Shown here: positions 20,393 to 41,328 of the stretch, in pieces | Numbering within the stretch: position 1 is the first letter of the stretch | Layout: every line of letters starts with the position of its first letter | Assembly (NCBI RefSeq): GCF_026626685.1 | Contig: NZ_JAPNJX010000021.1 | Coordinates: 1-41,328, forward strand | Reading direction: 5' to 3' | From: Nannocystis sp. SCPEA4 | GTDB taxonomy: Bacteria > Myxococcota_A > Polyangia > Nannocystales > Nannocystaceae | DNA length: 41,328 nt | The notes under the pieces: model-generated | Seen by the model: only the letters and a program-made list of their open reading frames with translations | Told to the model about the DNA's origin: nothing | Databases searched by the model: none | Position numbers and translations under genes: made by a program

Positions 20393-21142
20393 TCACGGTC
20401 CGGCGATCGCCCGCGCGGGGCTCGCCCCGCCGGTTCCGTCCTGCAGCAGTCGCTCGTAGGCGTAGAACCGGCGCAGCACCGCCTTCACGTACGCCCGGAC
20501 CCCCGGGTGAGGCGGCACTCCGCCGTACTTCTGCACCGCGCCGGCGCCGGAGAAGTAGCCGGCCGCCACCAGCACCATGTCGCCGCCGAAACGATTGGCG
20601 AGCAGGCGCAGGAACTTCGCGCCGCCGTAGATGCTCTGCCGCGGGTCGAACGGCTGCTGGACCCCGAGGAAGCGCGCCGTCGACGGCATCAGCTGCGTCA
20701 GCCCCATCGCGCCCGTGCTGCTGACCGCGCCCGGATAGTAGTTGCTCTCGGTGTGAATCACCGCGCGCAGCAGCGACTCCGGCAACTGATACAGGCGCGC
20801 CGCGCCGCGGATGTGCGTCTCCCAGCGGCGCGAGCGTTCGTCGGCCAGCGCCTCCGCGACCTCCACCTGCGGATCTCGGCGTGGCGCCGCGGGCTCGGCC
20901 TCCGCTGCCGCGGTCTTCGGCGCCCCTTCGCCGCCGCTGCCGGGCATCTCCTCGACCTCGCGCCGTCCGCCCGCGCCGACAGCGCGGACCGGCGTCACGT
21001 GGACCACCCCCTGCGCGTCCGTGTAGCGGCGGTACGTCGGCTCGGCCGCGGCGATCGGCCGCGTCGACAGCCCGACCAGCGCCGCCGCCAGCATCGCCGC
21101 CGCCGCGTGGATCGGCCCCCGACCGGCGCGTCGCTGCGGCAT
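20393..21142 (-). CDS. secreted lytic transglycosylase (SLT domain)
   Basis: SLT catalytic motif HTESNYYPGAVSSTGAMGLTQLMP. N-terminal signal sequence. Confidence 0.7.
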   Translation of the reverse strand: MPQRRAGRGPIHAAAAMLAAALVGLSTRPIAAAEPTYRRYTDAQGVVHVTPVRAVGAGGRREVEEMPGSGGEGAPKTAAAEAEPAAPRRDPQVEVAEALADERSRRWETHIRGAARLYQLPESLLRAVIHTESNYYPGAVSSTGAMGLTQLMPSTARFLGVQQPFDPRQSIYGGAKFLRLLANRFGGDMVLVAAGYFSGAGAVQKYGGVPPHPGVRAYVKAVLRRFYAYERLLQDGTGGASPARAIAGP

Positions 21143-21231
21143 GGGCCGATTCGCTCCCACGCACCGAGCCTATCGCCGCCGCGGACCCTTGTCGACCGGC
21201 CCCGCCGCTCTGCTACTTTCGCCGCACGACC

Positions 21232-23586: not shown

Positions 23587-24052
23587 GATATGCCAGGTTC
23601 ACACCGTTCTTTTCACTGGACGCGCCTTGGCCGGCTGCTATCTACTTTGCCCGACAGGCGGGCAAACCCGCTCGCTCTGAGGTGGCGACAGTCGTGGCCA
23701 CCTGACTTGCTGTCCGTCGGCCCTGTGTGACCCGGACGGCAAGTGGCCGACCGGTGTCCGGGCGGCCGTCCGCTCTCGACCCCCTTGGCTTGTCGCTGCT
23801 TCTTCGCCCTTTCCGCCGCGCCATCGACCGGCCGCGCAGTCAACCCGCAGTAATTGCTCTCAAACGGCCTCTTTGGCCCTTTTTCCGCTTAAAAAGAGCA
23901 ATCTGCGCCGAACTGGCGAGCTGGCCTGCACCGGGCCCAACTGTCCCGAACTACTTGAAGGTGGGGGATTTTCACCCCACAACGGACGCCGACGAGTCGG
24001 CGGCACAAGAGGTGCAGAAGGGCGCGCGCAAACGCCTGGAGACGAACTGCCG

Positions 24053-24544
24053 ATGCAACCCCGATTCAACGTTGGTGAGAAGGCCGTTTACCCGACTCAC
24101 GGTGTCGCCGAGGTCATGGCCCTCGAGACGAAAATCATCGAGTCGCGCCCGTTCCAGTTCTATCACCTGCGCGTCCTCGGCTCCGGACTCAAGATCATCG
24201 TCCCGGTGGCCAAGGCCGAAGAGAACGGCATGCGTCCGCTCGCTGACGGTGAGATGATCGACGAGCTCTACGATCTGCTGCGCGACCACGAGGTCCCGTG
24301 CGATCGCCAGACCTGGAACCGGCGCTACCGCGGCTTCATGGAGAAGATCCGCACGGGTTCGCTGTTCGAGGTCGGCGAGGTCTACCGCGATCTGAGCCTG
24401 CTCAAGCACACCAAGAATCTCTCGCACGGCGAGCGGCAGATGCTGCAGACCGCCCGGAACCTGGTCATCCGCGAGCTCTCGACCGTCCGCAACGAGCCCG
24501 AGTCCGCCATCGCCGCCGAACTGGACTCGATGCTGCAGGCTTGA
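24053..24544 (+). CDS. cdnL: CarD/CdnL family RNA-polymerase-binding transcription factor (CarD_TRCF RID domain)
   Basis: FNVGEKAVYPTHGVAEVMALETKII... RID domain. About 163 aa. Start ATG 24053 (MQPRF). Confidence 0.8.
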   Translation: MQPRFNVGEKAVYPTHGVAEVMALETKIIESRPFQFYHLRVLGSGLKIIVPVAKAEENGMRPLADGEMIDELYDLLRDHEVPCDRQTWNRRYRGFMEKIRTGSLFEVGEVYRDLSLLKHTKNLSHGERQMLQTARNLVIRELSTVRNEPESAIAAELDSMLQA

Positions 24545-29037: not shown

Positions 29038-29847
29038 ATGGCCGACGACGATCCGATCACCGAGGGTTACTTCGATCGCCACCTGCATCGGCCGCTCGCA
29101 GCGTGGGTCCTGGGCCGGGTGCGACCGGCGCCGAGCCTCGAGCTGCTGACCCTCGCCGGGCTCGTGGTCGGCCTCACCGGCGCCGTCGCCGTGCTCCTCG
29201 CCTCGCCGCGCAGCGTCGACTGGATCTTCCCCGCGTGGCTGCTGTTCGCGTTCACCGTCGCCAGCAGCGGTCGTCGCCTCCTCGCCGGTCATTCGGGCGC
29301 CGAGCCCGAGGCCGGGATGCTGGAGTTCGCGATCGGCGCCGCCTTCTGGATCGCGCTGACGCTGCGCGCCGCGCCGGACAGCGCGTGGACGTGCACCGTC
29401 GCCTCGATCGCGCTGGTCAGTGCTCTGGTCCACGTCGGCCTCCAGGCCGAGCTGCGGCGGCGCTTCGCCGAGCTCACCGGCGGTGACGGCGACGTCGCGC
29501 CTCCCTCGCCGCGGCCCTCGGTGGCTGCGCTGGCGCGCGGGCTGGCGCCCGCCGTGTTCCACGACCTCGCGGCCGCACTGCTCGGGCCCGAACACCTCGG
29601 CGGCCGGCCCCCGCCGGGCGCCGCGCGCTCGCTCCTCGCCGCGCCGATGCGCATGGCCGCATGGCTCGGTCACGACACCCACCTCGCCCTGCTCTACGTC
29701 GCCACCGCGGTCGCCGCGGTCCGCATCGACCTGGCCTTCTGGACAGTCGCCCTCGCGGTCGCGGTCGGCCTCAATCTTTGGGCGCTGCTGGTCGTGGCCG
29801 GCTGGCGCCGCGCCGAGGCGCTGGTCCGCCGGCTCGCGCCCGTGTGA
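29038..29847 (+). CDS. hypothetical polytopic membrane protein
   Basis: 6 or more hydrophobic helices. No catalytic motif recognised. Confidence 0.5.
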   Translation: MADDDPITEGYFDRHLHRPLAAWVLGRVRPAPSLELLTLAGLVVGLTGAVAVLLASPRSVDWIFPAWLLFAFTVASSGRRLLAGHSGAEPEAGMLEFAIGAAFWIALTLRAAPDSAWTCTVASIALVSALVHVGLQAELRRRFAELTGGDGDVAPPSPRPSVAALARGLAPAVFHDLAAALLGPEHLGGRPPPGAARSLLAAPMRMAAWLGHDTHLALLYVATAVAAVRIDLAFWTVALAVAVGLNLWALLVVAGWRRAEALVRRLAPV

Positions 29848-30011
29848 AGCGCGGCCGAGGATCGGGCGAGACAACCGCAGCGCCCGACGAGCGAAGCGCC
29901 CCGGAACGCCCGGGCTCGGCCCGTGCACGCGTTGCTGCGCCTGCGGACCCCGCGACGACGAGCGCGCCCGGGCTGCGACGAGCGCAGCGCGGGCGCGGAG
30001 GGATGGCCGAT

Positions 30012-30058
30012 CGCACATGTCCCGAGGACCCTGTCCCCGGGGCCATGCGCCGGGCTCA
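30012..30058. repeat. repeat-family copy between convergent genes (gcaCATGtcccgaggaccCTGTccccggggcCATGcgccgggctc)
   Basis: CATG 30016, CTGT 30031, CATG 30044, a 14/15-bp phase. Contains a CCCCGGGG palindrome. Sits at the ACP 3' end, so it may be a bidirectional terminator. Confidence 0.55.
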
Positions 30059-30322
30059 GGACGCGGCGGCCTGCTTCTCCTGCAGCGTCTTGTGCAGCAG
30101 GTCGACCAGCTCGTTGATGTTGGTCAGCTTGTTGAGCTCGGCGCGGGGGATCTTCACCTTGAGCTCGCGCATGCTGCAGGAGACGACCTCGACGATGTCG
30201 AGACTGTTGGCGCCGAGGTCCTTCATCGACTTCGCGGGGTCGACCTGGGCCGAATCGATCCCTTCGACGGTGTCCACGAGGTGGCGCTTGACGACGGCCA
30301 AGACATCATCGCGGGTGCTCAT
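30056..30322 (-). CDS. acyl carrier protein
   Basis: DLGANSLDIVEVV with the phosphopantetheine-attachment Ser. 88 aa. Confidence 0.85.
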   Translation of the reverse strand: MSTRDDVLAVVKRHLVDTVEGIDSAQVDPAKSMKDLGANSLDIVEVVSCSMRELKVKIPRAELNKLTNINELVDLLHKTLQEKQAAAS

Positions 30323-30385
30323 TCTCGGTTCTCCTTGGTGGGCGCGGGGCAGACGGCCCGCAGCGAATCTCGCAGGAAATGAAGC

Positions 30386-31201
30386 TCAAAAACTCAGCCC
30401 GTGGCGCTCGCGCGCAGAGAACAGGCGAACGACGTTGTCGGCGAAACCGAGCCCTCTGTCCAGTAGCAGAATCTGCCCCTTGACCCCGTCCATGAGGCCG
30501 CTGCAGAGGGCCAGCGCCGCGGCCGCGACCTCGTCGGGGTCGATGAACCAGCCCTCCGAGTAGTACTTCTTGCAGAACGGCACGAAGTCGGGCCCGAAGG
30601 TCGCTTCCAGCGATGCAGTCTCGACCGGGTTCGCGCGCAGGATGTTGATGCGAACATCCTCACTGAGCAGATCTGCCGTGAGGTAGCGACAGAAGGTCTC
30701 CATCACGGTCTTGCTCGCGGCGACGAAGTCATAGCCCGGCAGGAAGTACTCGGGCCCGCGCGACGACATTCCCACGGCGTACTTCGGCCAGCGGCCGAAG
30801 GTCTCGCGCACCGCCTGCAGGTAGCCGACGAACGGCCACGCGCTGTAGCCGAGGCTGCGCAGGAACGACTTCTTGTCGAGGTCCTCGTGCGACTTGCTGA
30901 CGTGGGCGAACGACACGTTGCTGATCAGCGCGAACACGGCGTCGTGGTCGCGGCGGATCAGCTGCATCAGCGCCTCGGTGTCCTCGTCCTGCGACGCGTC
31001 GGCCTCGACGATCGTCGGCGCCGGCGCGCCCGCGGCCTCGAACTGCGCGCGCAGCTCGTCCTCGTCGGCCGAGCCCCAGCGGTGCGTGAGGTACACGTGC
31101 GCGCCGTGCTTGCCGAACAGGAGGCCCGTCGCCAGGCCGATGCCCGCCGTCCCGCCGGTGACGATGACGGCCTTGCCCTTGAGATCGTTGCGGAGGATCA
31201 C
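30386..31201 (-). CDS. FabI-like enoyl-[ACP] reductase (SDR family)
   Basis: GKAVIVTGGTAGIGL Rossmann. Y-x6-K dyad (YDFVAASK) typical of FabI-type ER. GTG start with a GGAAGGGA Shine-Dalgarno. The ORF-track N-terminal extension is Arg-rich junk. Confidence 0.7.
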   Translation of the reverse strand: MILRNDLKGKAVIVTGGTAGIGLATGLLFGKHGAHVYLTHRWGSADEDELRAQFEAAGAPAPTIVEADASQDEDTEALMQLIRRDHDAVFALISNVSFAHVSKSHEDLDKKSFLRSLGYSAWPFVGYLQAVRETFGRWPKYAVGMSSRGPEYFLPGYDFVAASKTVMETFCRYLTADLLSEDVRINILRANPVETASLEATFGPDFVPFCKKYYSEGWFIDPDEVAAAALALCSGLMDGVKGQILLLDRGLGFADNVVRLFSARERHGLSF

Positions 31202-32013
31202 GACGCCGTCCCTTCCTTGTCGGTGCCGCCGACGAGGCGGGGCCCGAGCGTGGCGATGTTGTCGACGAACGCGGCCCCGCGGTCGAGCGTCAGCACCTGC
31301 CCGCCCATCGCGTCGAACAGGCCGCTGCACAGCGCGAGCGCGGTGTCGGCGACCTCGTCGACCGTGCACGCGAACTCAGGGAACTTGCCGGCCAGCGCGC
31401 GCTGCTCGGCGGCGAACATCTGCTCGTAGCTCTCGGTCATCACCTGGCGGGTGCGCAGCGCGTTGACGATGCAGCCGTGCTCGTACAGGTGCGTGCTCAT
31501 GTAGCGCACGAACGTCTCGAGCACCGCCTTGGCCACGGCCACGTAGTCGTAGCCCGGGTAGTGGGTGTCGGGGCCGTCGGACGACATCGCCAGGGCGTAG
31601 CGCGGGTAGCGACCGAACGCGGCGTGCAGCGCCTGCAGGTAGCCGACGAACGGCCAGCTCGAGTACTCGAGGCTCTTGTACAGCGCGCGCCGGCTGTGAC
31701 TCATCGGCCCGTCGCCGCGCTGGACCACGCACACGTTGCTGATGAAGGCCCACACGCCGTCGCACTCCTCCTTGAGGCGCGCCGTCAGCTTGTCGGTGTC
31801 CTCCTCGCGCGAGGCGTCGGCCTCGATCACCAGCGGCGCCGGGGCGCCCGCGGCGATGAACCGGGCCCGCAGCGCGTCCTCGTCGGCCGAGCCCCAGCGG
31901 TGCGTCAGCACCGTGCGCGCGCCGTGGCGACCGAACGCGAGCGCGCACGCGAGGCCGATGCCCCGCGTCCCGCCCGTGATCAAGACGACCCTGTCCTTCA
32001 AGTCATGCAGCAA
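31198..32013 (-). CDS. FabI-like enoyl-[ACP] reductase paralog (SDR family)
   Basis: About 45% identical to the downstream paralog (DRVVLITGGTRGIGL; YDYVAVAK). TTG start preceded by GGAGGAAGA. The first codons are rare and contain a CCTGTCC word. Confidence 0.65.
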   Translation of the reverse strand: MLHDLKDRVVLITGGTRGIGLACALAFGRHGARTVLTHRWGSADEDALRARFIAAGAPAPLVIEADASREEDTDKLTARLKEECDGVWAFISNVCVVQRGDGPMSHSRRALYKSLEYSSWPFVGYLQALHAAFGRYPRYALAMSSDGPDTHYPGYDYVAVAKAVLETFVRYMSTHLYEHGCIVNALRTRQVMTESYEQMFAAEQRALAGKFPEFACTVDEVADTALALCSGLFDAMGGQVLTLDRGAAFVDNIATLGPRLVGGTDKEGTAS

Positions 32014-32042
32014 GCGTCTTCCTCCGTTGCCTCGTCCGTGCG

Positions 32043-32816
32043 CTACCCGGAGCCCTTGGCGTAGTTCGTGCGGATCCGCGCCACCGTCTCCGGGTCGGCG
32101 AAGCATACCTCGTGCATCATCGACTCGACCGTGCGCGCCTCCTCGAACGCGCGCCGCCGCGGCAACGCCAGCGCACGCTTGAGCAATAGCAGCGCAGCGC
32201 GCGGCTTGTCGGCGATCCGCGCCGCCATGTCGATCGCCCGCGGCAGCACCTCGGCGCGCGGCACGACCGCGTTGACCTGGCCGCGCCCGGCCAGCTGCTC
32301 GCCGCGGAAGTACTGCCCGCCGAACAGCATCTCGGCCGCGACGTACTCGCCGAACGCGAACTGCAGCAGCCGCGTCGAGCCCATCCCCGGGGTGAAGCCC
32401 AGGTCCATGAAGTTGGCGCCGTAGCGGCTCTCGCGGGCCAGCACGACCATGTCGCAGGCCAGCCCGAACACGAGGCCGCCGCCGACCGCCGGCCCGGCCA
32501 TCGCCGCGACCGTCGGCACCGGCGCCTCGAGCAGCGCCCGCGTCAGCACCAGATCGTACGGCGCGATCGTGCCCTCGGCCAGGCCGAGCAGCACGTCGCG
32601 GTCGCCGCCGGCCGAGAACACCTCGGGCAGCCCCGCGATCACGCACACGCGCACGTCGGCGCGCCGGCCGAGGTCCTCGAGCGCCTGCGTCAGCGCGGCC
32701 GCGAACGCGCGGCTGAACGCGTTCTTGCCCGCCACGTCGCGCATGGTCAGCACCGCCAGCCCCTCGCGCTCGAGCGTCACGTCGACGAGGCTGTCTGTTG
32801 GGACATGCGCGTTCAT
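32043..32816 (-). CDS. enoyl-CoA hydratase/isomerase (crotonase) family protein, ECH of the beta-branching cassette
   Basis: Crotonase fold (VCVIAGLPEVFSAGGD; GPAVGGGLVFGLACD). ATG 32816. Confidence 0.8.
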   Translation of the reverse strand: MNAHVPTDSLVDVTLEREGLAVLTMRDVAGKNAFSRAFAAALTQALEDLGRRADVRVCVIAGLPEVFSAGGDRDVLLGLAEGTIAPYDLVLTRALLEAPVPTVAAMAGPAVGGGLVFGLACDMVVLARESRYGANFMDLGFTPGMGSTRLLQFAFGEYVAAEMLFGGQYFRGEQLAGRGQVNAVVPRAEVLPRAIDMAARIADKPRAALLLLKRALALPRRRAFEEARTVESMMHEVCFADPETVARIRTNYAKGSG

Positions 32817-32835
32817 TCCTGTCCTTTCAGCCTGG
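32791..32835. repeat. repeat-family copy spanning a start codon and RBS (ctgtctgttgggacatgcgcgttcattcctgtcctttcagcctgg)
   Basis: On the minus strand it reads GAAAGGACAGGA-ATG-AACGCGCATGTCCCAACAGACAG, that is RBS + MNAHVPTD. The CCTGTCCTTTC half matches the copy at 3024-3034. Confidence 0.55.
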
Positions 32836-33568
32836 CGAACCACGGCGGCGCTTGCCCGTCGGCCAGCAGGGCGGCCAGCGCCGCCCGCAGTTCGGGGTCC
32901 TCGAGGTCGGCCGCGGTCTGGGCCACCCCGCCCTGCCCGGCCGTCGCGGTGATCCGCTTGAGCGTCGCCACCGCCTGCGGGCGGGCCCGCAGCAGCGAGC
33001 GCATGAGCCCGCGCAGGGCCGTATTCGGCTCGTCCGCGACCACGTCGACGAGCCCCCACGGCTCGGCCTGGGCGGCCGTCACGACCTCGCCGGTAAGCGC
33101 CAGCCGCCGGGTCCGCCGCGCGCCGAGGCGCGCTTCGAGGGCCGGCAGGATCACCGCCGGCACCAGCCCGTAGCGCAGCTCCGGCAGCGCGAACGTGGCC
33201 GCGGGGCCGGCGATCACCAGGTCGCAGGCAGCAGCCAGCCCGACCCCGCCGCCGCTGGCCGCGCCGATGACCACCGCGATCGTCGCCAGCGGCGCGCTCG
33301 CCAGCAGCTCGAGACAGCCGGCGTAGCGCTCCATCGCCACGCGCATCGGCCCCGACCCGGTCTTCAGCGCCGCCGCCAGGTCCATGCCGGCGCAGAACTC
33401 CGCCGCCTCGCTGGCGATCACCAGCGCGCGCGCCGACGCGGCGACCGCCTGCTCGACGGCGTCGGCCAGCGCCGCGATCCCGTCGGGGTCGAGAGCGACA
33501 TGTCCCCCGGGACCTGCCCCGAGGTACAGCCGCCAGATCAGCTCGCCCTCTTCGCAGCGGACGCGCAT
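32813..33568 (-). CDS. enoyl-CoA hydratase/isomerase (crotonase) family protein, second ECH
   Basis: Crotonase fold (FCAGMDL; GAASGGGVGLAAACD). 4-nt overlap with the downstream ECH. The N-terminus contains a repeat copy (GAGPGGHVALDPDG). Confidence 0.75.
   Translation of the reverse strand: MRVRCEEGELIWRLYLGAGPGGHVALDPDGIAALADAVEQAVAASARALVIASEAAEFCAGMDLAAALKTGSGPMRVAMERYAGCLELLASAPLATIAVVIGAASGGGVGLAAACDLVIAGPAATFALPELRYGLVPAVILPALEARLGARRTRRLALTGEVVTAAQAEPWGLVDVVADEPNTALRGLMRSLLRARPQAVATLKRITATAGQGGVAQTAADLEDPELRAALAALLADGQAPPWFARLKGQE
33491..33525. repeat. repeat-family copy inside the CDS (gagagcgacatgtcccccgggacctgccccgaggt)
   Basis: CATG 33499, CTGC 33514. GGGACATGTCCCCC palindromic core. 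Confidence 0.5.
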
Positions 33569-33604
33569 GGCTCAACTCCTGGGCCGAGGGGCGGACGGGC
33601 GCGG

Positions 33605-33630
33605 CATAACATGTCCCTCAGGACAGGCGG
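33605..33630. repeat. repeat-family copy in the 49-bp gap between HMGS and ECH (cataacatgtccctcaggacaggcgg)
   Basis: TGTCCC-TCA-GGACA inverted repeat. The GGACAGG also serves as a Shine-Dalgarno-like sequence for the ECH gene. Confidence 0.5.
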
Positions 33631-34859
33631 TACTCCCGCTGCCAGCCGCGCACCGCGTCGAGGACGAGCCGGCCCTTGCCGGCGTAGGCGCGCTCGTACA
33701 GCCCGCGCAGCCCCGACTGGTCGACCTCGTAGTCGCTCTGATCGATGTAGCCGGCCCGCAGCCGCTCGAGCGCCTCGTACTCGGCGATCGTCAGCGGCAT
33801 GCGGCGGTCGAGGCCGGCGGCGATCCGCTGGCTGGCGACCCGCTCGCGCGCGCGCTCGCCGACGGTCGTGCGGTAGAACTCGGCGCACGAGCCCGAGCCG
33901 TAGGAGAAGATCGACACCTGGTCGCCGGCGTGCAGCTCGGGGTCGGCGTCGATGAGCCCGAGCATGGCGATGAAGGTCGCCGACGTGTAGGTGCCGCCGA
34001 AGCGCGAGTTGTAGCGCAGCGCCGCCTTCGACTTGCGCTCGAAGTGGGCCTTCGCCTCGCGCAGCGACATCTCGTGCGGCCCGCGGCGCAGCAGCGCCCG
34101 GTGGGCGCGGAACGTCATGCCGCCGAACGGCACGTGGTAGATGTGGCGGGCGAACGCGGCGTCGTAGTCGACCATGCCCGAGCGAGCGACGTAGTGGTCG
34201 TACGCGCCCTCGAGCGCGTCGAGGTAGCCGTACAGGCTGGTGTCGGCGTGGCCGACCTCCTTGGTCGACGTCGGCCGGTAGGTGTCGAAGATCTCCTGCG
34301 TCCAGTAGCCGCAGGTGTCGAGGTCGATCTCGAGGACGTCCGGCTCGGCGCTGACCAGCATCGCCGTGGCCGCCGCGCCGAGCACGTACTCCCACGGCTG
34401 CCCGAGGTGCACGCGGCTCTGGTCGGTGCACACCACCAGCGCCTTCTTGCCCGGGGCCGCGCCCGACGCGACCCAGTGGGCCGCCATCATCAGGCCGCCG
34501 GTGCCGCCGTAGCAGGCGTGCTTGGTCTCGAAGTTGCGGCAGTTGGCCGTGAGCCCGCAGTAGCGCTGCACGTAGGTCGAGATCGGCTTGCCGAAGTCGA
34601 CCGACGACTCGGTGCCGACGATCACGAGCTCGATGTCCTTGCGGTCCTCGGGCCCGACGATCTGCAGCGCGGCGTTGACCGCCATCGTCACCGGGTCCTC
34701 CCACGCGGGGTTCAGCGACCGCTCGCTCACCCACAGCTCCTCGAGCGGGTGGCGCGGATCGTGGTCGCGCGCCTCTGCGAGCAGCTTCATGTCGAGCGAG
34801 AGCGTGCACGGGTAGGCCGTGATCCGCTCGATGCCGACGCGCGGCCGGTGGTGCGCCAT
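33618..34859 (-). CDS. hydroxymethylglutaryl-CoA/ACP synthase family (HMGS, PksG/TaC-like beta-branching enzyme)
   Basis: HMGS active-site region NFETKHACYGGTGGLMMAAHWV (catalytic Cys). 413 aa. Thiolase-like fold. Confidence 0.85.
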   Translation of the reverse strand: MAHHRPRVGIERITAYPCTLSLDMKLLAEARDHDPRHPLEELWVSERSLNPAWEDPVTMAVNAALQIVGPEDRKDIELVIVGTESSVDFGKPISTYVQRYCGLTANCRNFETKHACYGGTGGLMMAAHWVASGAAPGKKALVVCTDQSRVHLGQPWEYVLGAAATAMLVSAEPDVLEIDLDTCGYWTQEIFDTYRPTSTKEVGHADTSLYGYLDALEGAYDHYVARSGMVDYDAAFARHIYHVPFGGMTFRAHRALLRRGPHEMSLREAKAHFERKSKAALRYNSRFGGTYTSATFIAMLGLIDADPELHAGDQVSIFSYGSGSCAEFYRTTVGERARERVASQRIAAGLDRRMPLTIAEYEALERLRAGYIDQSDYEVDQSGLRGLYERAYAGKGRLVLDAVRGWQREYRLS

Positions 34860-34872
34860 CGTCTTCCCCCTC

Positions 34873-35616
34873 TCAGTACGTCCAGTCGAGGCCGCCCGTG
34901 ACCGGCACGACCTGACCGTTGATGAAGCTGCCGCCGTCGGCGAGGAACAGCACCACGGCGGCGAGCTCGTCGAGCGTGCCCATGCGGCCCTTGGGCATCG
35001 GGCAGTACTGCTGCCAGTAGTCCTTGGCCGCCTGCGGCATGGTCTCGCGCGTCATGTCGGTGTCGAAGAAGCCGGGCACGACGACGTTGGCGGTGATGCC
35101 CTTGCGCCCGTACTCCTTGGCGAGCGACTGGGTGAAGCCGTGCAGCCCGGCCTTGCTGGCGGCGTAGTTGGCCTGGCCGGCCGCACCGTTGTGCTGGATC
35201 GACGAGATGTTGACGATCCGGCCGAAGCGCGCCGCCAGCATCTGCGACAGGAACGCGCGCACGACGTAGAACGGCCCGTGGAGGTTGGTGGCGATCACGT
35301 CGTGCCACTCCTCGTCGGACATCGAGACCACCAGGTTGGCGCGGTTGATGCCGGCGCAGTTGACCACGACCTCGACGCTGTCGAAATCGTTCAGCACCTC
35401 GTCGGCGACCTCGGCGACCCGCTCGGCGCGGCTGACGTCGAGCGCGTAGCCCTTGCACTTCGCGCCCGGGCGCAGCGCCGCGGCCTCGGCCTCGATCTTG
35501 CGCGCGGCCTCGTCGTTGCTGCGGTAGGCGAACGCGACGTCGTGACCGGCGCGCACCGCCGCGAGCACGATCCCGGCGCCGATCCCCCGCGAACCTCCGG
35601 TGACGAAGAAGTTCAT
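34873..35616 (-). CDS. fabG: 3-oxoacyl-[ACP] reductase
   Basis: MNFFVTGGSRGIGAGIV; NISSIQHNGAAGQANYAASKAG (S-Y-K triad); 247 aa classical SDR. Confidence 0.85.
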   Translation of the reverse strand: MNFFVTGGSRGIGAGIVLAAVRAGHDVAFAYRSNDEAARKIEAEAAALRPGAKCKGYALDVSRAERVAEVADEVLNDFDSVEVVVNCAGINRANLVVSMSDEEWHDVIATNLHGPFYVVRAFLSQMLAARFGRIVNISSIQHNGAAGQANYAASKAGLHGFTQSLAKEYGRKGITANVVVPGFFDTDMTRETMPQAAKDYWQQYCPMPKGRMGTLDELAAVVLFLADGGSFINGQVVPVTGGLDWTY

Positions 35617-35624
35617 GGCGCGGC

Positions 35625-36935
35625 TCACAGGGCGTTCGGGTCCCACCGGCGGTACAGCGCGCAGCAATTGAGGCCGCCGAAGCCGAACGAGTTCTTGACC
35701 ATGAGGTTGATGCGGTGCTCGACCGCCTTGTTGGCGCACACGTCGACGTCGACCTCGGGGTCGAGCTCGTCGATGTTGATCGACGGGTGCAGCACGCCGC
35801 CGCGCATCTGCAGCAGCGCCGCGACCGTCTCGACCGCCGGCGCCGACCAGCAGGTGTGGCCGAGCATCGACTTCGGCGCGTTGATCTTGAGCCGCTTGGC
35901 GTGGTCGCCGAACACCTTGCGGATCGCGTTGAGCTCCGACAGGTCGCCGAGCGGCGTGCTGGTCGCGTGGGCGCAGATGAAGTCGATCTCCTCGGGCCGC
36001 ACCTGCGCGCGCCGCAGCAGGCGCTCGAGCGTGCGCGCCTGGCCCTCGGTCGACGGCGACGGCAGGTGACAGCCGTCCGACGTCGAGGTGCAGCCGAGCA
36101 CCTCGGCGTAGATCGTCGCGCCGCGCTTGAGCGCGTGGCCGAGCTCCTCGAGCACCAGCGCGCCCGCCCCGTGCGACGGCACGAAGCCCTCGCGGCGGGA
36201 GTCGTAGGGCCGGCTGGCCAGCTCGGGCGTGTCGTTGAAGCTTTCGAAGGTGATGGCGCCGAGCAGCGCCATCGCGTGCACGCCCATCTGCGAGAAGTCG
36301 AGCACCGCGCCGACCACCATCGCCATGTCGTGGTCGTGGTGGCGGATCTCGTCGATCGCGTTGCGCAGGGCCACGTTGGCGCTGGCGCACGCGCCACCCA
36401 GCGTGTAGCAGGAGCCCTTCCAGCCCAGCATCTCGCTCACCGATCCGGCGTGGTCGGTGTCGAGCATGTGCAGCGCCGCCATCGAGTCGATGTAGTCGGG
36501 GTCCTCGGTCTGGAAGGTGACGTAGTTGTCGGCGAAGTAGCGCTCGTTGAGGTTGTGGCCGCCGACCAGCACCGCGCAGCGCGTCGGGTCCGCGACCTCG
36601 ACCATGCCGGCGTCGCGCCAGGCGTCGGCGGCGCACAGCACCGACAGCGACGTCGAGAACGGCGCCTTGTTGCACAGGAGGCGCGCCCGCTTGTGCACCT
36701 CGGCCGGCAGCACGTCGCGCAGGCGCGCGAGCTTGGCCTTGACGTCGTACTCCGACAGATCGCCGCCGATCTTCGAGTAGACGCCCTCGTTGTTGTGCCA
36801 CTTCCAGCGCGTGATGGCGGACTTGCCGGCGACGAGGTTGGCGTAGAACGTGTCGAGATCGTCGCCGAGCGGCGTGTTGATACCGAGGCCGGTGATGACC
36901 ACGCGGCGGGGCGATTGTGCCTGCGATGAGACCAT
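35625..36935 (-). CDS. beta-ketoacyl-[ACP] synthase (FabF/FabB-like; active-site Cys retained)
   Basis: GGACASANVAL (Cys), CAHATSTPLGD (His), SMLGHTCWSAP (His). 436 aa. Confidence 0.85.
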   Translation of the reverse strand: MVSSQAQSPRRVVITGLGINTPLGDDLDTFYANLVAGKSAITRWKWHNNEGVYSKIGGDLSEYDVKAKLARLRDVLPAEVHKRARLLCNKAPFSTSLSVLCAADAWRDAGMVEVADPTRCAVLVGGHNLNERYFADNYVTFQTEDPDYIDSMAALHMLDTDHAGSVSEMLGWKGSCYTLGGACASANVALRNAIDEIRHHDHDMAMVVGAVLDFSQMGVHAMALLGAITFESFNDTPELASRPYDSRREGFVPSHGAGALVLEELGHALKRGATIYAEVLGCTSTSDGCHLPSPSTEGQARTLERLLRRAQVRPEEIDFICAHATSTPLGDLSELNAIRKVFGDHAKRLKINAPKSMLGHTCWSAPAVETVAALLQMRGGVLHPSINIDELDPEVDVDVCANKAVEHRINLMVKNSFGFGGLNCCALYRRWDPNAL

Positions 36936-36951
36936 GCGTGCTCTCTGGGGG

Positions 36952-37506
36952 TCAGTCCATCAGGTAGACCTCGAACACCGCGAGGGCCTGGACCTCCTCG
37001 CCGCGGAGGGCCTGACCGACGCAGGTCGAGACGTAGTCGCTGTGCTCGAGCGAGCGGGCGAGCAGCGTCAGCCGGTCGCCCGGGCGGACGCCGCCCTGGA
37101 ACAGGGCGTGGTGGACCTTGAGCAGCCGCAGCCGCGCCGGAGCGTCGGTCGCGTCGATGCGGGCTGTCCCTTTGGCCATGAGGTGCAAGAGACAGATCCC
37201 GAGCTGCCCGATCGCCTCGACCAGCAGCACCCCCGGGTACACCGGGTCGCCGGGGAAGTGGCCGGCGAACACCGCGTCGCCGGCGTCGATCGTGCGCGCG
37301 CCCCGGATCATCCCCGGCTCCTCGGCGCTGCGCGGCAGCTCGACCGCGTCGATCGCGTCGACGAACAGGAACGGGTCGCGGTGCGGCAGCATCCGCTCGA
37401 TGTCCGCGCGGCCGAACTCCACCCGCGTGGAGCCCTCCCCGGGCACGAACACCGGCCGGCGCCGGTGCTGCTTGATCAGCGTGTCGAGGCCGCTCAGCTC
37501 GTCCAC
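36952..37506 (-). CDS. fabZ: 3-hydroxyacyl-[ACP] dehydratase (hotdog fold)
   Basis: LPHRDPFLFVDAI...GHFPGDPVYPGVLLVEAIGQ. GTG start with an AGGAGG Shine-Dalgarno, overlapping the stop of the upstream acyltransferase. The ORF-track N-terminal extension is discarded. Confidence 0.8.
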   Translation of the reverse strand: MDELSGLDTLIKQHRRRPVFVPGEGSTRVEFGRADIERMLPHRDPFLFVDAIDAVELPRSAEEPGMIRGARTIDAGDAVFAGHFPGDPVYPGVLLVEAIGQLGICLLHLMAKGTARIDATDAPARLRLLKVHHALFQGGVRPGDRLTLLARSLEHSDYVSTCVGQALRGEEVQALAVFEVYLMD

Positions 37507-38504
37507 GACGCCTCCTGAGCCTTGTCCTTGCGCGTCGTCGGCGGCAGGTGCTGGCGCAGCGCCGCGAGCACGCCGGCGAGGTGCCCGGGGGCGTCGTCGC
37601 GGCTGTCGGTGGCGTACTTCGGGCGCGTCGACCACTTGCGGTCGAGCAGGTTGTGCAGCACCTGGCGCGGACCGACCTCGACGAACACCGCGCCCGGGTG
37701 GCGCTCGGCGACGCGGTCGATCGACTTGCGCCACAGCACCGGCGTGTGCACGTGCGCCTCGAGCAGGTCGACGAAGTCGGTGCGCGTCGGCGCCGGCACG
37801 AACTCGCCGCGGCGGTTCGGCAGGTACGGCAGCCGCGGCGCGCGGAAGCGGGCCCGCTGCAGGTGCGGCCGCAGAGCCACGCCGACCGGCTCGAACAGCG
37901 ACGAGTGCATCGGCACCTGGCGCTCGATGATCGTCGGCACCACGAAGTGCTCGTCCTCGAGCAGCGTCACCGCGGCCTCGACCGCGGCGGCGTCGCCCGA
38001 CAGCACGTGCTGCTTCGGCGAGTTGAGGTTGACGATCTCGAGCACGCCGAGGCCCTGGCCGCGGATCTGCTCGACCACCTCCTCGAGCGTCTCGAGGTCG
38101 AGCGGCTGGACCGAGGCCATCATCCCGCGCGGGCCGGCGTCGTAGGCCTCGCCGCGGGCCTGGACCAGGCGCAGCGCCTCCGGCAGCTCGAGCGCGCCGA
38201 TGTGCACGAGGTGGTTGTACTCGCCGAGCGACAGCCCCAGCGACAGCTCGGCGTCGACGCCCTCGGCCTGCAGCAGGCTGAGCATCATGTGATTGGCGAC
38301 GAACACCCCGACCTGGACGTCGACGTTGCGATCGAACGCCGTCGGGTTGTCCTCGCTGGTGTGGGCGTTGAGGTCGCGGCCGAGGACGTCGCTGCACACC
38401 GCCAGCACCTCGGCCGCGCGGCGATGCAGCCGGGCCAGCTTGCCGAGCATCCCCGGGTAGCGCGAGCTCTGCCCTGGGAACATGAACACCAGCGTCGTCA
38501 TCAT
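37494..38504 (-). CDS. ACP S-malonyltransferase-like acyltransferase (FabD family)
   Basis: FPGQSS and GLSLGEY (active-site Ser) motifs. 336 aa. Confidence 0.8.
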   Translation of the reverse strand: MMTTLVFMFPGQSSRYPGMLGKLARLHRRAAEVLAVCSDVLGRDLNAHTSEDNPTAFDRNVDVQVGVFVANHMMLSLLQAEGVDAELSLGLSLGEYNHLVHIGALELPEALRLVQARGEAYDAGPRGMMASVQPLDLETLEEVVEQIRGQGLGVLEIVNLNSPKQHVLSGDAAAVEAAVTLLEDEHFVVPTIIERQVPMHSSLFEPVGVALRPHLQRARFRAPRLPYLPNRRGEFVPAPTRTDFVDLLEAHVHTPVLWRKSIDRVAERHPGAVFVEVGPRQVLHNLLDRKWSTRPKYATDSRDDAPGHLAGVLAALRQHLPPTTRKDKAQEASWTS

Positions 38505-38526
38505 CGTGCCCCCTGCCCTGTCCCGC

Positions 38527-39786
38527 TCACTCGGCCGCCTCGTCGACGCGGCCGCGGATGATCGTGTCCTCGAGGATCTCGAGCGCGCGGTCGAGGTCGG
38601 CGCGCGTGTGCGCGGCCGTGATCGCGACGCGGAAGCGCAGGCCGTCCTCCGGCACCGAGGGGTAGTCGACCGGCGCGAGGAACAGCCCGCGGCGGTGCAA
38701 CGTGCGCGTCAACTCATACAGCCGTCGGCGATCCGATCCGACCATGATCGGCACCACCTGACTCGAACCGTGCCCGAGGTCGAGCCCGATCTGCAGCGCC
38801 TTCTCCCGGAAGTAGCGGGTGTTGGCCCACAGCGTCTCGCGCAGCGAATTGTCGCGCGTCGCCACCTCGAGCGCCTTGCGCAGGCCGGCCACCACCGCCG
38901 GCGGCAGCGCGCAGCTGAAGCCGTAGGCGTTGATGTAGTAGCGCATGTAGTGCAGCAGCGCGCGCGGCCCGACGGTGAAGCCGCCGCAGCCGGCGAACGC
39001 CTTGCTGAAGGTCGCGAACTGCAGGCCGATCGACTTCTCGGCGCCGTAGTGCTCGACCACGCCGCGGCCGTGCGCGCCGTACACGAGGATCGAGTGGGCC
39101 TCGTCGATCAGCACGCCGACGCCGTGCTTCTCGGCCACCGGCAGGAGCCGCGGCAGATCGGCCGTGTCACCGTCCATCGAGTACACGCCCTCGACGACCA
39201 CCAGGCGGCGCGCGCCCTCGCTGTCGGTCAGCGCCTGGTCGAGCGAGTCGGGATCGTTGTGGTCGAAGAACACCAGCTTGGCGCGCGACAGCTTGACGCC
39301 GTCGATCGAGCACAGGTGCGTCTTGGCGTCGAGGATGGCGACGTCGCCCTTGCGCAGCACGCCCGCCAGCGTGCCCATGCCGCCGGCGAAGCCGCTGTTG
39401 AAGAGGATGCAGTCCTCCTGTCCGAGGAACGCCGCGAGCTCGCGCTCGAGCCCGCGGTGCAGATCGGACAGTCCCGACAGCAACGGCGAACCACAAGCCC
39501 CGGTGCCGTAGGTGCGCAGGGCCTCCTGCGCCGCCTCGACGACCTCGGGGTGCGTAGCGAGCCCGAGGTAGTTGTACGAGCTGAGGTTGATGACGTCGCT
39601 GCGCTCGCCGGCCCGCTCGATCGCCATGCGCGGTGCGACGGCCCCCAACATGTGGGGTTCGTACATCGACATCGCCCACGAGCCGGCTTCGGCCCACTGC
39701 ACGAAGCCCTCGGGTGGACAGAGCGGATCGTCGCTGTCCGAGAAGTAGAAGTCGGCCAAACTGTGCTCGGCTTCGCGGCCCATCAC
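38527..39786 (-). CDS. alpha-oxoamine synthase family PLP enzyme (serine palmitoyltransferase / 8-amino-7-oxononanoate synthase / KBL-like)
   Basis: PLP-lysine motif FATFSKAFAGCGGF. SMDGD and HGxGxxE motifs. About 70-aa N-terminal extension. AGGGGAG Shine-Dalgarno before GTG/ATG 39786/39783. First gene of the operon. Confidence 0.8.
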   Translation of the reverse strand: MMGREAEHSLADFYFSDSDDPLCPPEGFVQWAEAGSWAMSMYEPHMLGAVAPRMAIERAGERSDVINLSSYNYLGLATHPEVVEAAQEALRTYGTGACGSPLLSGLSDLHRGLERELAAFLGQEDCILFNSGFAGGMGTLAGVLRKGDVAILDAKTHLCSIDGVKLSRAKLVFFDHNDPDSLDQALTDSEGARRLVVVEGVYSMDGDTADLPRLLPVAEKHGVGVLIDEAHSILVYGAHGRGVVEHYGAEKSIGLQFATFSKAFAGCGGFTVGPRALLHYMRYYINAYGFSCALPPAVVAGLRKALEVATRDNSLRETLWANTRYFREKALQIGLDLGHGSSQVVPIMVGSDRRRLYELTRTLHRRGLFLAPVDYPSVPEDGLRFRVAITAAHTRADLDRALEILEDTIIRGRVDEAAE

Positions 39787-39976
39787 GGAACTCCCCTGTA
39801 CGTCGGGGCCCGGCGTAGTTACAGCGAAAGTATCGCGGCTGTCACGGAAATTTTGTTCGCCAGCGGTTCCCCTGCGCTGTCGAGCACGTGTAGCGCGCGG
39901 TGTCGCGTCGCTGCGTGTGTTGCAGATTGCATCGCGCTGGCCTTATCGCCGAACTTTTTAAACCGATGCATAAGTT

Positions 39977-40017
39977 GATGCGGGGAAATGCGGCCGCATG
40001 CGGCGGGTATGGCCGCT
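39977..40017. promoter_or_regulatory. four 10-bp-phased direct repeats ATGCGGC in the divergent promoter region
   Basis: gATGCGGGGaa ATGCGGCCGC ATGCGGCGGGt ATGGCCGC, with starts at 39978, 39988, 39998 and 40008. Lies in the low-GC 450-bp gap between the AOS operon and the epimerase gene. Confidence 0.45.
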
Positions 40018-40239
40018 GCTAGTTAATCTCGAGTGCAACAATCTCGCAGGCTCAGCGAGCGACCTCGACGGTCTGCTCGCGCGTGCGCTCGCGTGTGGAC
40101 TGCGAAACGCGTCGCACACTGTCTGAATGTCACGCGGGCGCGGACAGCCGACCGCAGAGCGTCGAACGCGTGGCGAAGCTCTCGGGTCCGATGTCACAGC
40201 CTTGACGTCGCACCGACCGGGTGGTTATCCCCCGCGTCG

Positions 40240-41328
40240 TGAGCACGAAGGTGGTCGTCACCGGCGCGAACGGGTTCATCGGCAGTCACCTCGTCGATCG
40301 CTTGCTCGCCGAGGGCCACGCGGTGCGGGCGATGGTCCGCGCCGGGGCCAACCTCGACAACCTCGCCGACGCGTTCGCGCGGCCGTCCGGGCGGCCCGAG
40401 CTGGCCCACGCCACGCTCGCCGACGTCGACGCGATGACCACGGCGTTCGACGGCGCCGACGTCGTCTATCACGTGGCCGGACTGACCGCCGCGTTCACGC
40501 GCGAGGAGTTCGCGCGGGCCAACGCCGTCGGGGTCGCCAACGTGCTCGCGGCGATCCGCAACGCGCCTGGTCGGCCGCGGCGGCTGGTCTACGTGTCGTC
40601 GCTGATGGCCGCCGGCCCCTCGCACCCCGAGGTCGCGCGCCGCGAACACCACGCCCCGCGCGTCGGCTTCACCCTCTACGGCGACAGCAAGCTCGACGGC
40701 GAGAAGCTGGTCTTCGCGGCCGCGCGCGCCGGCGACGTCGAGGCCGTGATCGTGCGCCCGCCCGCGGTCTACGGCCCGCGCGACGCCGACATGCTGCAGA
40801 TGATCCGCTCGGCCAAATTCGGCGTGATCGCCCAGCCCGGCCTGCGCCCGGCGTGGATGTCGTTCATCCACGCGCTCGACCTCGTCGACGGCATCGCCCG
40901 CGCCGGCGCCCGTGGGCGCCCGATCCCCCGCGACGGCGACCACGTGCTCGACGATCGAGGCTGTCCCTTCGACCATGTCCCCGAGGACCCGTCGCACCCG
41001 GTCGGCGCAGGCATCTACTACTTCACCGACGGCCAGCGCAGCACCGTCGTCGGCTTCGGCCGGGCCGCCGCCGCCGCACTCGGCCGCCGCGCGCTCGCGC
41101 TGCCGATGCCGCGCGCGGCCGTGTGGACCGTCGCCGGCATCAACCACGCGATCGGCAAGCTCCGCGGCAAGGCCCCGGCGCTCACCCTCGACAAGGCCCG
41201 CGGCAGCATGGCGCCGGGCTGGTGGTGCGACGACAGCAAGGCGGTCCGCGAGCTCGACTACGCCCCGCAGTGGCCGCTCGCGCGGGGGCTCGAGCACACC
41301 GTCGCGTGGGCGCGCGCTGCAGGCCGCC
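40240..41328 (+). CDS. NAD-dependent epimerase/dehydratase family reductase (partial, 3' end off the window)
   Basis: GTG start. VVVTGANGFIGSHLV Rossmann. YGDSK catalytic dyad. Not in the ORF track (no stop in the window). The minus-strand ORF 40194..41297 is its antisense artefact. Confidence 0.7.
40961..40992. repeat. repeat-family copy embedded in-frame in the epimerase CDS (ctgtcccttcgaccatgtccccgaggacccgt)
   Basis: Encodes CPFDHVPEDP within an apparent ~25-aa insertion between the conserved ...GIARAGARG and GAGIYYFTDG segments. Confidence 0.6.

Follow-up and report, generated by a model that had tools for sequence, protein, structure and literature searches.

A Nannocystis operon that combines a discrete fatty acid synthase, a beta-branching cassette and an alpha-oxoamine synthase: a candidate source of methyl-branched amino-lipids

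Described systems and the Nannocystis operon

The described systems that come closest to the operon considered here include: (i) SgaAB of Pseudomonas fluorescens MYb115, in which an iterative type I polyketide synthase (PKS), a stand-alone alpha-oxoamine synthase (AOS) and a reductase make sphinganines, and of which there are thousands of homologues, mainly in Burkholderia (PMC12134224), (ii) the serine palmitoyltransferase (Spt) of Caulobacter, which works with a dedicated acyl carrier protein (ACP) and an AMP-forming ligase, and further with an N-acyltransferase and a reductase of the NDUFA9-like kind (PMC11324152, PMC11087976), and (iii) cassettes of 3-hydroxy-3-methylglutaryl (HMG) synthase (HMGS), known with trans-acyltransferase (trans-AT), cis-AT and one aromatic type II PKS (PMC11522927). 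The operon lies at positions 30056-39783, on the minus strand, of a 41,328-nucleotide stretch of Nannocystis sp. SCPEA4 (contig NZ_JAPNJX010000021.1, positions 1 to 41,328; the whole stretch is called the window). Its eleven genes encode a discrete type II fatty acid synthase (FAS) set, an HMGS branching cassette and an AOS, and they probably direct the synthesis of a methyl-branched, sphingolipid-like amino-lipid. None of the three systems joins an HMGS cassette and an AOS to a reductive type II cycle, and a literature search found no description of such a combination, in agreement with the preliminary description of this DNA, which did not recognise the architecture as a described pathway; a functional precedent does exist, however, in SgaAB (PMC12134224). 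In a survey of the conserved biosynthetic gene clusters of Myxococcota, geosmin is the only characterised conserved cluster listed for Nannocystis.

SgaAB is the closest functional precedent of the operon. As in SgaAB(C), a dedicated synthase takes the place of the housekeeping FAS, off-loading falls to a stand-alone AOS and a reductase gene adjoins. Unlike SgaA, which is one iterative type I PKS polypeptide, the operon encodes discrete type II proteins and a free-standing ACP; moreover, SgaAB is without HMGS and without the two crotonase-fold enzymes (ECH1 and ECH2) of branching cassettes. In an SgaAB-type locus of Burkholderia (L089), the genes for a type I PKS, an AOS and an alcohol dehydrogenase precede FtsX-type ABC and lipoprotein-sorting genes, neighbours of the kind seen with the Nitrospinota version of the Nannocystis gene set. 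The use of a dedicated synthase with an AOS to reach a sphingoid base or amino-lipid is, accordingly, a principle already known, and what is unusual is the placement of the branching cassette.

The HMGS cassettes of PKS pathways (e.g., AcpK/PksC/F/G/H/I of Bacillus subtilis, CurB-F and TaB/C/K/X/Y) share with the operon an ACP-type HMGS, a crotonase in the ECH1 position, an ECH2, a small ACP and a malonyl AT, and the order HMGS, ECH1, ECH2, ACP is that of the PKS cassettes found in loci L055-L066 of the survey below. Unlike these cassettes, the operon has no PKS megasynthase or separate acceptor ACP, its ketosynthase (KS) keeps the active-site Cys that is exchanged for Ser in most cassettes, and the cassette is embedded in a full cycle of ketoreductase (KR), dehydratase (DH) and enoyl reductase (ER). 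The type II PKS for fogacin of Actinoplanes, which includes beta-alkylation, is precedent for an HMGS cassette that works with discrete type II enzymes (cited as ref 12 in PMC11522927). Fogacin is an aromatic polyketide made with pairs of KS and chain length factor (KS-CLF), and its system, unlike the operon, has no reductive FAS cycle and no AOS.

The Spt/AcpR/AasR/CerS/CerR system of Caulobacter resembles the Nannocystis gene set in combining an AOS-family enzyme with a dedicated ACP, a reductase of the extended short-chain dehydrogenase/reductase (SDR) superfamily (CerR is NDUFA9-like), an N-acyltransferase and a ligase-ACP pair. In Caulobacter, AasR loads AcpR with a preformed fatty acid, whereas the operon ACP would be served by its own FAS and branching cassette. 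A further difference is that the ligase-ACP pair of the wider Nannocystis gene set sits with a GNAT acyltransferase.

In the window, which has about 70% G+C, gene calls were based on GC at third codon positions and on the context of the start codons. The junctions of the operon, in the direction of transcription, are AOS-AT +22, AT-FabZ -13, FabZ-KS +16, KS-FabG +8, FabG-HMGS +13, HMGS-ECH-a +49, ECH-a-ECH-b -4, ECH-b-SDR1 +29, SDR1-SDR2 -4 and SDR2-ACP +63 nucleotides. The preliminary description had listed these eleven minus-strand genes and their families, with junctions of 50 nucleotides or less; the spacing holds except for SDR2-ACP (63 nucleotides), and all eleven family assignments are confirmed by Pfam and NCBIfam. 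As had likewise been claimed, no megasynthase accompanies them: the 41-kb window holds no PKS or nonribosomal peptide synthetase (NRPS) gene. The eleven genes are read, with fair confidence, as one operon for a self-contained lipid-building machinery.

Conservation of the gene set was followed by a scan for HMGS homologues, with one genome per species, and the 80 loci that resulted were screened with twelve window proteins. The set is kept together in about 50 loci. HMGS homologues are numerous in Nannocystaceae and metagenomes, and those of at least 51% identity on a long enough contig are always found with the same KS, FabG, ECH, SDR pair, ACP, FabZ, AT and AOS. Homologues below 50% identity lie amid modular PKS genes of Chloroflexota and actinomycetes; loci of the cluster type contain no PKS or NRPS gene. 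Every sampled genus and genome of Nannocystaceae carries the cluster (eight species or strains of Nannocystis, with Enhygromyxa, Plesiocystis, Pseudenhygromyxa and isolate ST9), as do many metagenome-assembled genomes (MAGs) of Polyangia/Myxococcota and MAGs labelled Phycisphaeraceae, Planctomycetota, Armatimonadota, Nitrospinota, Pseudomonadota and Eisenbacteria, so that the synteny expected among relatives is conserved throughout the sampled family and extends beyond it. Its recurrence in about 50 loci, spread over several phyla, puts the arrangement far beyond chance. In some loci (L005 and L054) the genes are rearranged into three units (HMGS-ECH-ECH, KS-FabG-SDR-SDR and ACP-AOS-AT-FabZ), and because the set persists despite the rearrangement, it is taken for one functional module and not for inherited synteny.

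At least three AOS lineages, 34-38% identical to one another, are attached to the same core. In some phyla the core carries AOS enzymes, those of L004, L005, L045, L048 and L054, that are only 36-38% identical to the Nannocystis type and only 34% to each other. Since several AOS lineages share one core, the constant element appears to be a factory for branched acyl-ACP, followed by AOS off-loading. In these loci the off-loading enzyme has been exchanged during evolution. Within Nannocystis, the window proteins are 97-100% identical to those of Nannocystis radixulma (L049). In N. pusilla GCA_049060185.1 (L001) the operon is fragmented, with an AOS of 184 aa, a KS of 185 aa, fused ECH genes and a split SDR2; because sister genomes are intact, these breaks are most likely long-read frameshift errors and not pseudogenes.

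The branching cassette and the discrete fatty acid synthase

The HMGS gene (33618-34859) encodes the aldol enzyme of beta-branching. Its product matches, in the PDB, CurD (269 bits), PksG (238) and 8s81 (228) ahead of the MvaS of Myxococcus xanthus (223) and of Gram-positive bacteria (177-190), and the TIGR01835 MvaS model gives 254 and does not reach its cutoff of 360. The CurD and PksG alignments cover the protein up to residue 411 of 413; with MvaS, alignment ends near residue 369. A C-terminal extension is described for PKS-type HMGS enzymes (PMC11522927), and the C-terminal segment of the Nannocystis protein, which has no counterpart in MvaS, agrees with it. Thus, on the question of whether the enzyme groups with PksG/TaC or with MvaS, both the scores and the C-terminal segment assign it by sequence to the ACP-dependent CurD/PksG type and not to MvaS. 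Unlike CurD and PksG, the enzyme is without the insertions of 7 and 3 residues that these carry in the loop after 'DQSRVHLGQ' (residues ~148-165). With its short loop and yet a C-terminal extension, it appears intermediate between PKS-type HMGS and HMG-CoA synthases.

The two crotonase genes differ in how firmly they can be placed. ECH-b (32043-32816) scores 271 with NF005496 (cutoff 215), the generic ECH2 domain, which is the only NCBIfam model (June 2026) passed by any of the eleven proteins. Its PDB matches are PksI (157 bits) and the ECH2 domain of CurF (140), with the next match at 93; the protein is without the Glu pair of crotonases and conserves a C-terminal 'MH'. By these sequence features ECH-b is unambiguously assigned as an ECH2 decarboxylase of the PksI/CurF type. 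ECH-a (32813-33568; Pfam ECH_1, 3e-31) has PRK07112 as its best NCBIfam match (125, cutoff 250) and reaches only 70 bits with PksH in the PDB, so that by score it is a generic crotonase. It sits in the ECH1 place of the series HMGS-ECH1-ECH2, and the ECH1 gene of PKS cassettes finds its best match in it. It is also the least conserved gene of the core and is absent from the Nitrospinota loci, with no copy in L004 and L042. A split of the pair into ECH1 and ECH2 is accordingly borne out for ECH2 (NF005496, PksI, CurF), while for ECH1 it is made by position, and ECH-a is presumed to be the dehydratase of HMG-ACP.

The sole KS of the operon (35625-36935; PF00109/PF02801) is of the FabF family. 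Its best NCBIfam model is the polyketide KS PRK07103 (357, cutoff 445), followed by fabF (328, cutoff 494). It is 32% identical to FabF of Escherichia coli and conserves C164, H304, H341, K336 and the gating Phe F401, and the Cys, in a 'GGACAS' motif, is invariant in 43 orthologues. The statement that the KS retains its Cys is therefore well founded, both in the orthologues and in the Cys-His-His triad aligned with FabF. Compared with FabF, the family shows an insertion of 14 residues and has exchanged 'GSGIGG' for 'GGHNLN'; within this family-specific motif the position of FabF I108 is occupied by Asn, which gives no clear information on chain length. Most HMGS cassettes include a decarboxylating KS with a Cys-to-Ser exchange, and because the Cys is retained, the Nannocystis KS is not that enzyme. 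The preliminary description had seen here the canonical beta-branching cassette; HMGS and ECH2 bear this out, but the KS, with its Cys in place, differs from the decarboxylating KS of that cassette.

The remaining proteins of the elongation cycle are likewise recognisable and divergent. The FabD-like AT (37494-38504; PF00698, 9.5e-21) scores 145 with fabD TIGR00128 (cutoff 261), and its serine motif 'GLSLGE' and 'VPMHSS' are conserved in 35 orthologues; 'GLSLGE' replaces the usual 'GHSLGE' throughout the family. The FabZ-type 3-hydroxyacyl-ACP dehydratase (36952-37506, GTG start; PF07977, 1.8e-19) reaches 74-81 bits with FabZ models, below cutoff, with the motifs 'GHFPGDPVYPG' and 'E..GQ' conserved. 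The FabG-type 3-ketoacyl-ACP reductase (34873-35616; adh_short_C2, 1.9e-52) scores 245 with TIGR01830 (cutoff 298) and has the classical Y-x3-K of E. coli FabG.

Two paralogous SDR genes, SDR1 (31198-32013, TTG start; adh_short_C2, 3.8e-26) and SDR2 (30386-31201, GTG start; adh_short_C2, 3.9e-32), would provide the ER function. SDR1 reaches 48-70 bits with FabL/FabI models and SDR2 has similarly weak scores; in both, a Y-x6-K pair aligns with Y156/K163 of E. coli FabI, and in SDR2 it is invariant in 53 sequences. Both also carry an unusual 'LTHRWGSADE'. In Pseudenhygromyxa the pair is fused into a single open reading frame (ORF) of 576 aa (L002, 12878-14608), in a Nitrospinota locus (L004, 12005-12724) one copy is without the catalytic Tyr stretch, and where the cluster is split both copies stay with KS-FabG. 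Because of the fusion, the loss of the Tyr in one copy and the joint retention with KS-FabG, SDR1 and SDR2 are read as one heteromeric enoyl reductase. The earlier view of two FabI-like enoyl reductases is thus retained as regards the Y-x6-K spacing and revised as regards the number of enzymes: the two proteins probably form one heteromer and not two reductases, and the Tyr loss suggests that one subunit may be non-catalytic.

The ACP, encoded by the last gene (30056-30322; PF00550, 5.6e-09), is by sequence closer to the ACPs of branching cassettes than to housekeeping ACP. Its best NCBIfam model is PRK07117 (62, cutoff 79), housekeeping ACP models score about 36, and identity to the ACPs encoded after ECH2 in the HMGS cassettes of PKS pathways is 44-59%, with a conserved 'GANSLDIVEVV' motif. 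It is the single ACP of the operon for both donor and acceptor roles. Taken together, the discrete KS, KR, DH, ER, AT and ACP have intact catalytic motifs, as expected of the complete elongation cycle (KS/KR/DH/ER) first proposed; their scores all lie below the housekeeping equivalog cutoffs, which points to a divergent, dedicated FAS set and not to the primary FAS of the cell.

Off-loading, accessory genes and the proposed pathway

The AOS (38527-39783; PF00155, 4.5e-47), encoded by the first gene, is a pyridoxal phosphate (PLP)-dependent acyl-thioester:amino acid C-acyltransferase, and its dedicated ACP is encoded in the same operon. Its catalytic motifs are present (the stacking His, 'DEAHS', the PLP Lys of 'TFSK' and the carboxylate-binding Arg of 'RFR'). 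The NCBIfam scores are bioF 325 (TIGR00858, cutoff 426), BioF/Kbl family 319, Kbl 302 (cutoff 460) and SPT 297 and 285, all below cutoff. Unlike bacterial Spt enzymes, it misses the cutoffs of all three SPT equivalogs: NF047600 (297, cutoff 640), NF047599 (285, cutoff 500) and NF047603 (230, cutoff 670). In the PDB the matches are SPT (246), Thermus BioF/KBL (245) and CFAT (202). The enzyme is 34-37% identical to BioF (34%) and Kbl of E. coli and to the SgaB-like AOS of Burkholderia (37%), and is no closer to this last than either AOS is to BioF or Kbl of E. coli. Comparisons with NCBIfam, the PDB, plasmid tblastn and a pairwise matrix did not single out a substrate class, as BioF, Kbl, SPT, CFAT and SgaB-like enzymes all gave about 34-39% identity or near-equal scores. 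A capnine-type sulfonolipid, suggested by the 202 bits with CFAT, was set aside, no cysteate synthase gene being nearby, and is kept as one possible amino-acid variant. The AOS family conserves 'THLCS' where BioF and Kbl of E. coli have 'SHAS' and 'NHAS'. The orthologue of Plesiocystis pacifica (L031, P0348) is annotated at source as 'possible BioF2'; BioF2 of Mycobacterium tuberculosis is a GNAT-AOS fusion, which would echo the GNAT gene found beside the AOS in marine Nannocystaceae.

These scores bear on the suggestion that the operon is an assemblage of unrelated genes, with an MvaS for mevalonate or isovaleryl-CoA, an AOS that serves biotin or threonine metabolism as BioF or Kbl, and some spare FAS genes. 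The bioF model is nominally the top NCBIfam match of the AOS (325 bits), and source databases label AOS orthologues 'BioF' or 'Kbl' (the names given to AOS, GNAT and HMGS homologues there are generic). By contrast, the AOS misses the bioF and Kbl cutoffs, bioA/B/D, tdh and genes for HMG-CoA reductase and mevalonate kinase are absent from the window, the HMGS belongs to the CurD/PksG type, the ECH2 passes a curated cutoff for PKS cassettes, and the genes, with junctions of -13 to +63 nucleotides, travel together across phyla even when rearranged. Separate mevalonate and biotin explanations are effectively refuted by the cutoffs, the gene content of the window, the HMGS and ECH2 types and the co-location, and the reading that the genes do not form one pathway is very improbable. 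The same data answer the concern, raised at the outset, that the AOS might be a genuine BioF in a biotin locus: bioF, Kbl and SPT cutoffs are all missed and no biotin genes are nearby.

The gene that diverges from the AOS (40239-41327, plus strand, GTG start; PF01370, 4e-34; PF01073, 1.2e-20) encodes an extended SDR of the NAD-dependent epimerase/3beta-HSD family. It is complete up to the last full codon of the window, only the stop codon, at the window edge, being missing. Its best NCBIfam models are HpnA (115) and the 2-alkyl-3-oxoalkanoate reductase OleD (74), both below cutoff, and sequence marks it as a candidate 3-keto reductase. In every Nannocystaceae locus the gene diverges from the AOS, and it is absent from other phyla. 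The epimerase/dehydratase-family reductase noted earlier at 40240 is thus present (from the GTG at 40239), with co-conservation confined to Nannocystaceae. Loci outside the family have no extended SDR, but an extra classical SDR.

Other genes that accompany the set in related loci have lipid-handling functions. Marine Nannocystaceae encode, between the reductase and AOS genes, a GNAT of 380-410 aa that matches PF13480 weakly; four Polyangia MAGs (L014, L016, L018 and L025) carry this GNAT after the cluster ACP, along with a second ACP and with a fatty acyl-AMP ligase (FAAL); and in N. punicea the GNAT-ACP-FAAL trio is far from the operon (CP114040.1, ~12.2 Mb; L086, 8001-11279). This trio is likely the N-acylation module for the operon product. 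Loci of Enhygromyxa have an extra family 4 glycosyltransferase (GT4), of which the best model is a lipid glycosyltransferase, and in Nannocystis a UDP-sugar pyrophosphorylase (UDPGP) gene stands behind the reductase. Phycisphaeraceae and Planctomycetota loci have an added C45-family acyltransferase, and the Nitrospinota locus is flanked by FtsX-type ABC, MMPL, MlaA and LolA-like genes. Because these accessory functions (GNAT/ACP/FAAL, GT4, SDRs and exporters) are those of lipid handling, they strengthen the reading of the product as a lipid.

They also bear on the proposal that the operon makes a small diffusible metabolite, either an alpha-amino or alpha-hydroxy ketone of the CAI-1/LAI-1 type or a pyrazine formed from a dimerised short branched aminoketone. 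AOS enzymes such as CqsA make signals, the CqsA model is a distant match of the AOS (198, cutoff 428), and a Planctomycetota locus (L003) has AurF-like and amine-oxidase neighbours that suggest tailoring chemistry. In the PDB, by contrast, CqsA is among the weakest of the AOS matches (97 bits). The presence of KS, KR, DH and ER together implies that elongation is repeated and reductive, the FAAL-ACP-GNAT, lipid-type GT4, FtsX, MlaA, MMPL and LolA-like neighbours belong to lipid handling, and the cluster is in every sampled Nannocystaceae genome amid housekeeping genes. A diffusible product is accordingly considered improbable.

From the gene identities, motifs, cassette type and co-location observed, a pathway may be proposed, the simplest to find a role for every gene, whose product, substrate order, branch position, chain length, amino acid and downstream steps would be as follows. 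The FabD-like AT would load malonyl onto the operon ACP, and the single KS would both initiate and elongate, with FabG, FabZ and the two-paralogue SDR reductase completing each cycle on the ACP. At one or more beta-keto stages HMGS may add an acetate unit, which ECH1 would dehydrate and ECH2 decarboxylate to leave a methyl branch. In the preferred version, branching takes place on acetoacetyl-ACP and gives 3-methylcrotonyl-ACP and then isovaleryl-ACP, which would prime an iso-terminal chain. The AOS is predicted to condense the chain with an amino acid (serine is favoured but unproven) in a PLP-dependent Claisen reaction and so to release it, yielding a branched 2-amino-3-ketoalkane, a base like 3-ketosphinganine. 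The ketone would then be reduced by the extended SDR or, in other phyla, by the extra classical SDR; the GNAT, encoded elsewhere in Nannocystis, may N-acylate the amine with a FAAL-activated fatty acid from the second ACP; and glycosylation by the GT4 would probably be next. The beta-branched amino-lipid or sphingoid base first envisaged as the product of a dedicated FAS is supported to this extent, with the product itself still a prediction and with added strength from the lipid genes of related loci.

Branching at the acetoacetyl stage, with an iso-terminal chain as the outcome, is favoured because it needs no extra selectivity of an iterative system and because its chemistry mirrors a known myxobacterial route; it is a tentative preference, put at somewhat less than an even chance. 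In that alternative route to isovaleryl-CoA, MvaS, LiuC, AibA/B and AibC act on CoA thioesters, with an MvaS-type synthase, a decarboxylase resembling glutaconate CoA-transferase and a reductase of the medium-chain dehydrogenase/reductase (MDR) superfamily. The preferred model shares with it the sequence in which acetoacetyl and acetyl units give HMG, which is dehydrated, decarboxylated and reduced to an isovaleryl primer for iso chains. Unlike those of the Aib route, the intermediates of the operon would be ACP-bound and the enzymes of the PksG/PksI type with SDR reductases.

The same enzymes may instead act with HMGS late, to set a methyl beside the amino-ketone head, or in several rounds, to give a multi-methyl, isoprenoid-like chain. 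In most trans-AT PKS pathways HMGS acts on long intermediates (PMC11522927). With FabG and FabZ conserved alongside the cassette, beta-keto intermediates of every length would be available, and nothing in the sequences fixes the HMGS acceptor. By contrast, the beta6-beta7 loop of the HMGS is without the 7+3 insertions of CurD/PksG, an iterative system has no obvious means to single out one late round, and the logic of an iso primer has its myxobacterial precedent in the Aib/MvaS route. The length of this loop is presumably that of acetoacetyl-specific HMG-CoA synthases; the difference from CurD and PksG is seen in the comparison, which does not fix the acceptor. Late or repeated branching is a less likely course, given perhaps one chance in a few. 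Its most far-reaching form, in which the cassette iterates in a type II FAS and builds several methyl branches into an isoprenoid-mimicking sphingoid base, made wholly from acetate, as a core envelope lipid of Nannocystaceae, is a speculation of low probability.

Several points weigh against the amino-lipid pathway as a whole or leave parts of it loose. The HMGS is untypical of PKS-type enzymes in that its sequence is without the CurD/PksG loop insertions, and the presumed ECH1 role of ECH-a is drawn mainly from gene position. An operon with a single ACP and without a Cys-to-Ser KS has no evident supply of acetyl donor for HMGS. The sequences fit an iso-terminal, a head-proximal or a repeated branch alike. 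The choice of amino acid is tentative, as the AOS passes no equivalog cutoff and its BioF, Kbl, SPT and CFAT scores are near each other, and the likeness of the reductase and GNAT to CerR and bCerS of Caulobacter is at the level of the general class. Moreover, a literature search found no lipid data for Nannocystis.

If correct, the amino-lipid pathway would join Spt, which uses housekeeping or AcpR-bound acyl chains, and the iterative PKS of SgaAB as the third way in which bacteria reach sphingoid-type bases, and it would place an HMGS branching cassette for the first time inside a cycle like that of fatty acid synthase and not in a polyketide assembly line. The product could be a widespread, so far unassigned environmental lipid and a potential biomarker (sterol-producing Nannocystaceae, uncultured Planctomycetota, Nitrospinota, Armatimonadota and others), and the enzymes would offer a compact, portable means of adding acetate-derived methyl branches to fatty chains. 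Were the cassette to iterate, Nannocystaceae would have a bacterial membrane pair of sterol and sphingolipid, the latter made by a route unrelated to the eukaryotic one.

Genomic surroundings

Plus-strand genes flank the operon on both sides, and its G+C is that of the flanks, with no compositional break. The rest of the window is of a housekeeping kind (malate dehydrogenase, succinyl-CoA ligase, peptidases, a chorismate-binding enzyme, a cobalamin adenosyltransferase and a macro-domain protein). The AOS and extended SDR genes diverge from a 455-bp intergenic region (39784-40238), presumed to be a shared promoter or regulatory region; it is of lower G+C than its surroundings and has palindromic stretches (e.g., ~39960-40010), and may have such a regulatory role. 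A scan of positions 29700-40400 for sigma-70 consensus promoters and intrinsic terminators found none, which says little for a myxobacterium, and neither the Rfam nor the tRNA scan of the window gave a hit.

Convergent with the ACP gene lies a plus-strand gene (29038-29847) for a predicted multi-pass membrane protein of 269 aa, which has no Pfam match and was seen in Nannocystis loci only. A plus-strand ORF at 24050-24544, unrelated to the operon, has by eye the look of a CarD/CdnL-family transcription factor ('...VYPTHGVAEV...'). Elsewhere in the window, the longest ORFs of a minus-strand SLT-domain protein (20393-21160) and of a plus-strand flavoprotein resembling aspartate oxidase/fumarate reductase (20881-22845) overlap by about 280 nucleotides; because the Pfam domain of the flavoprotein begins at residue 130, its start is probably further downstream.

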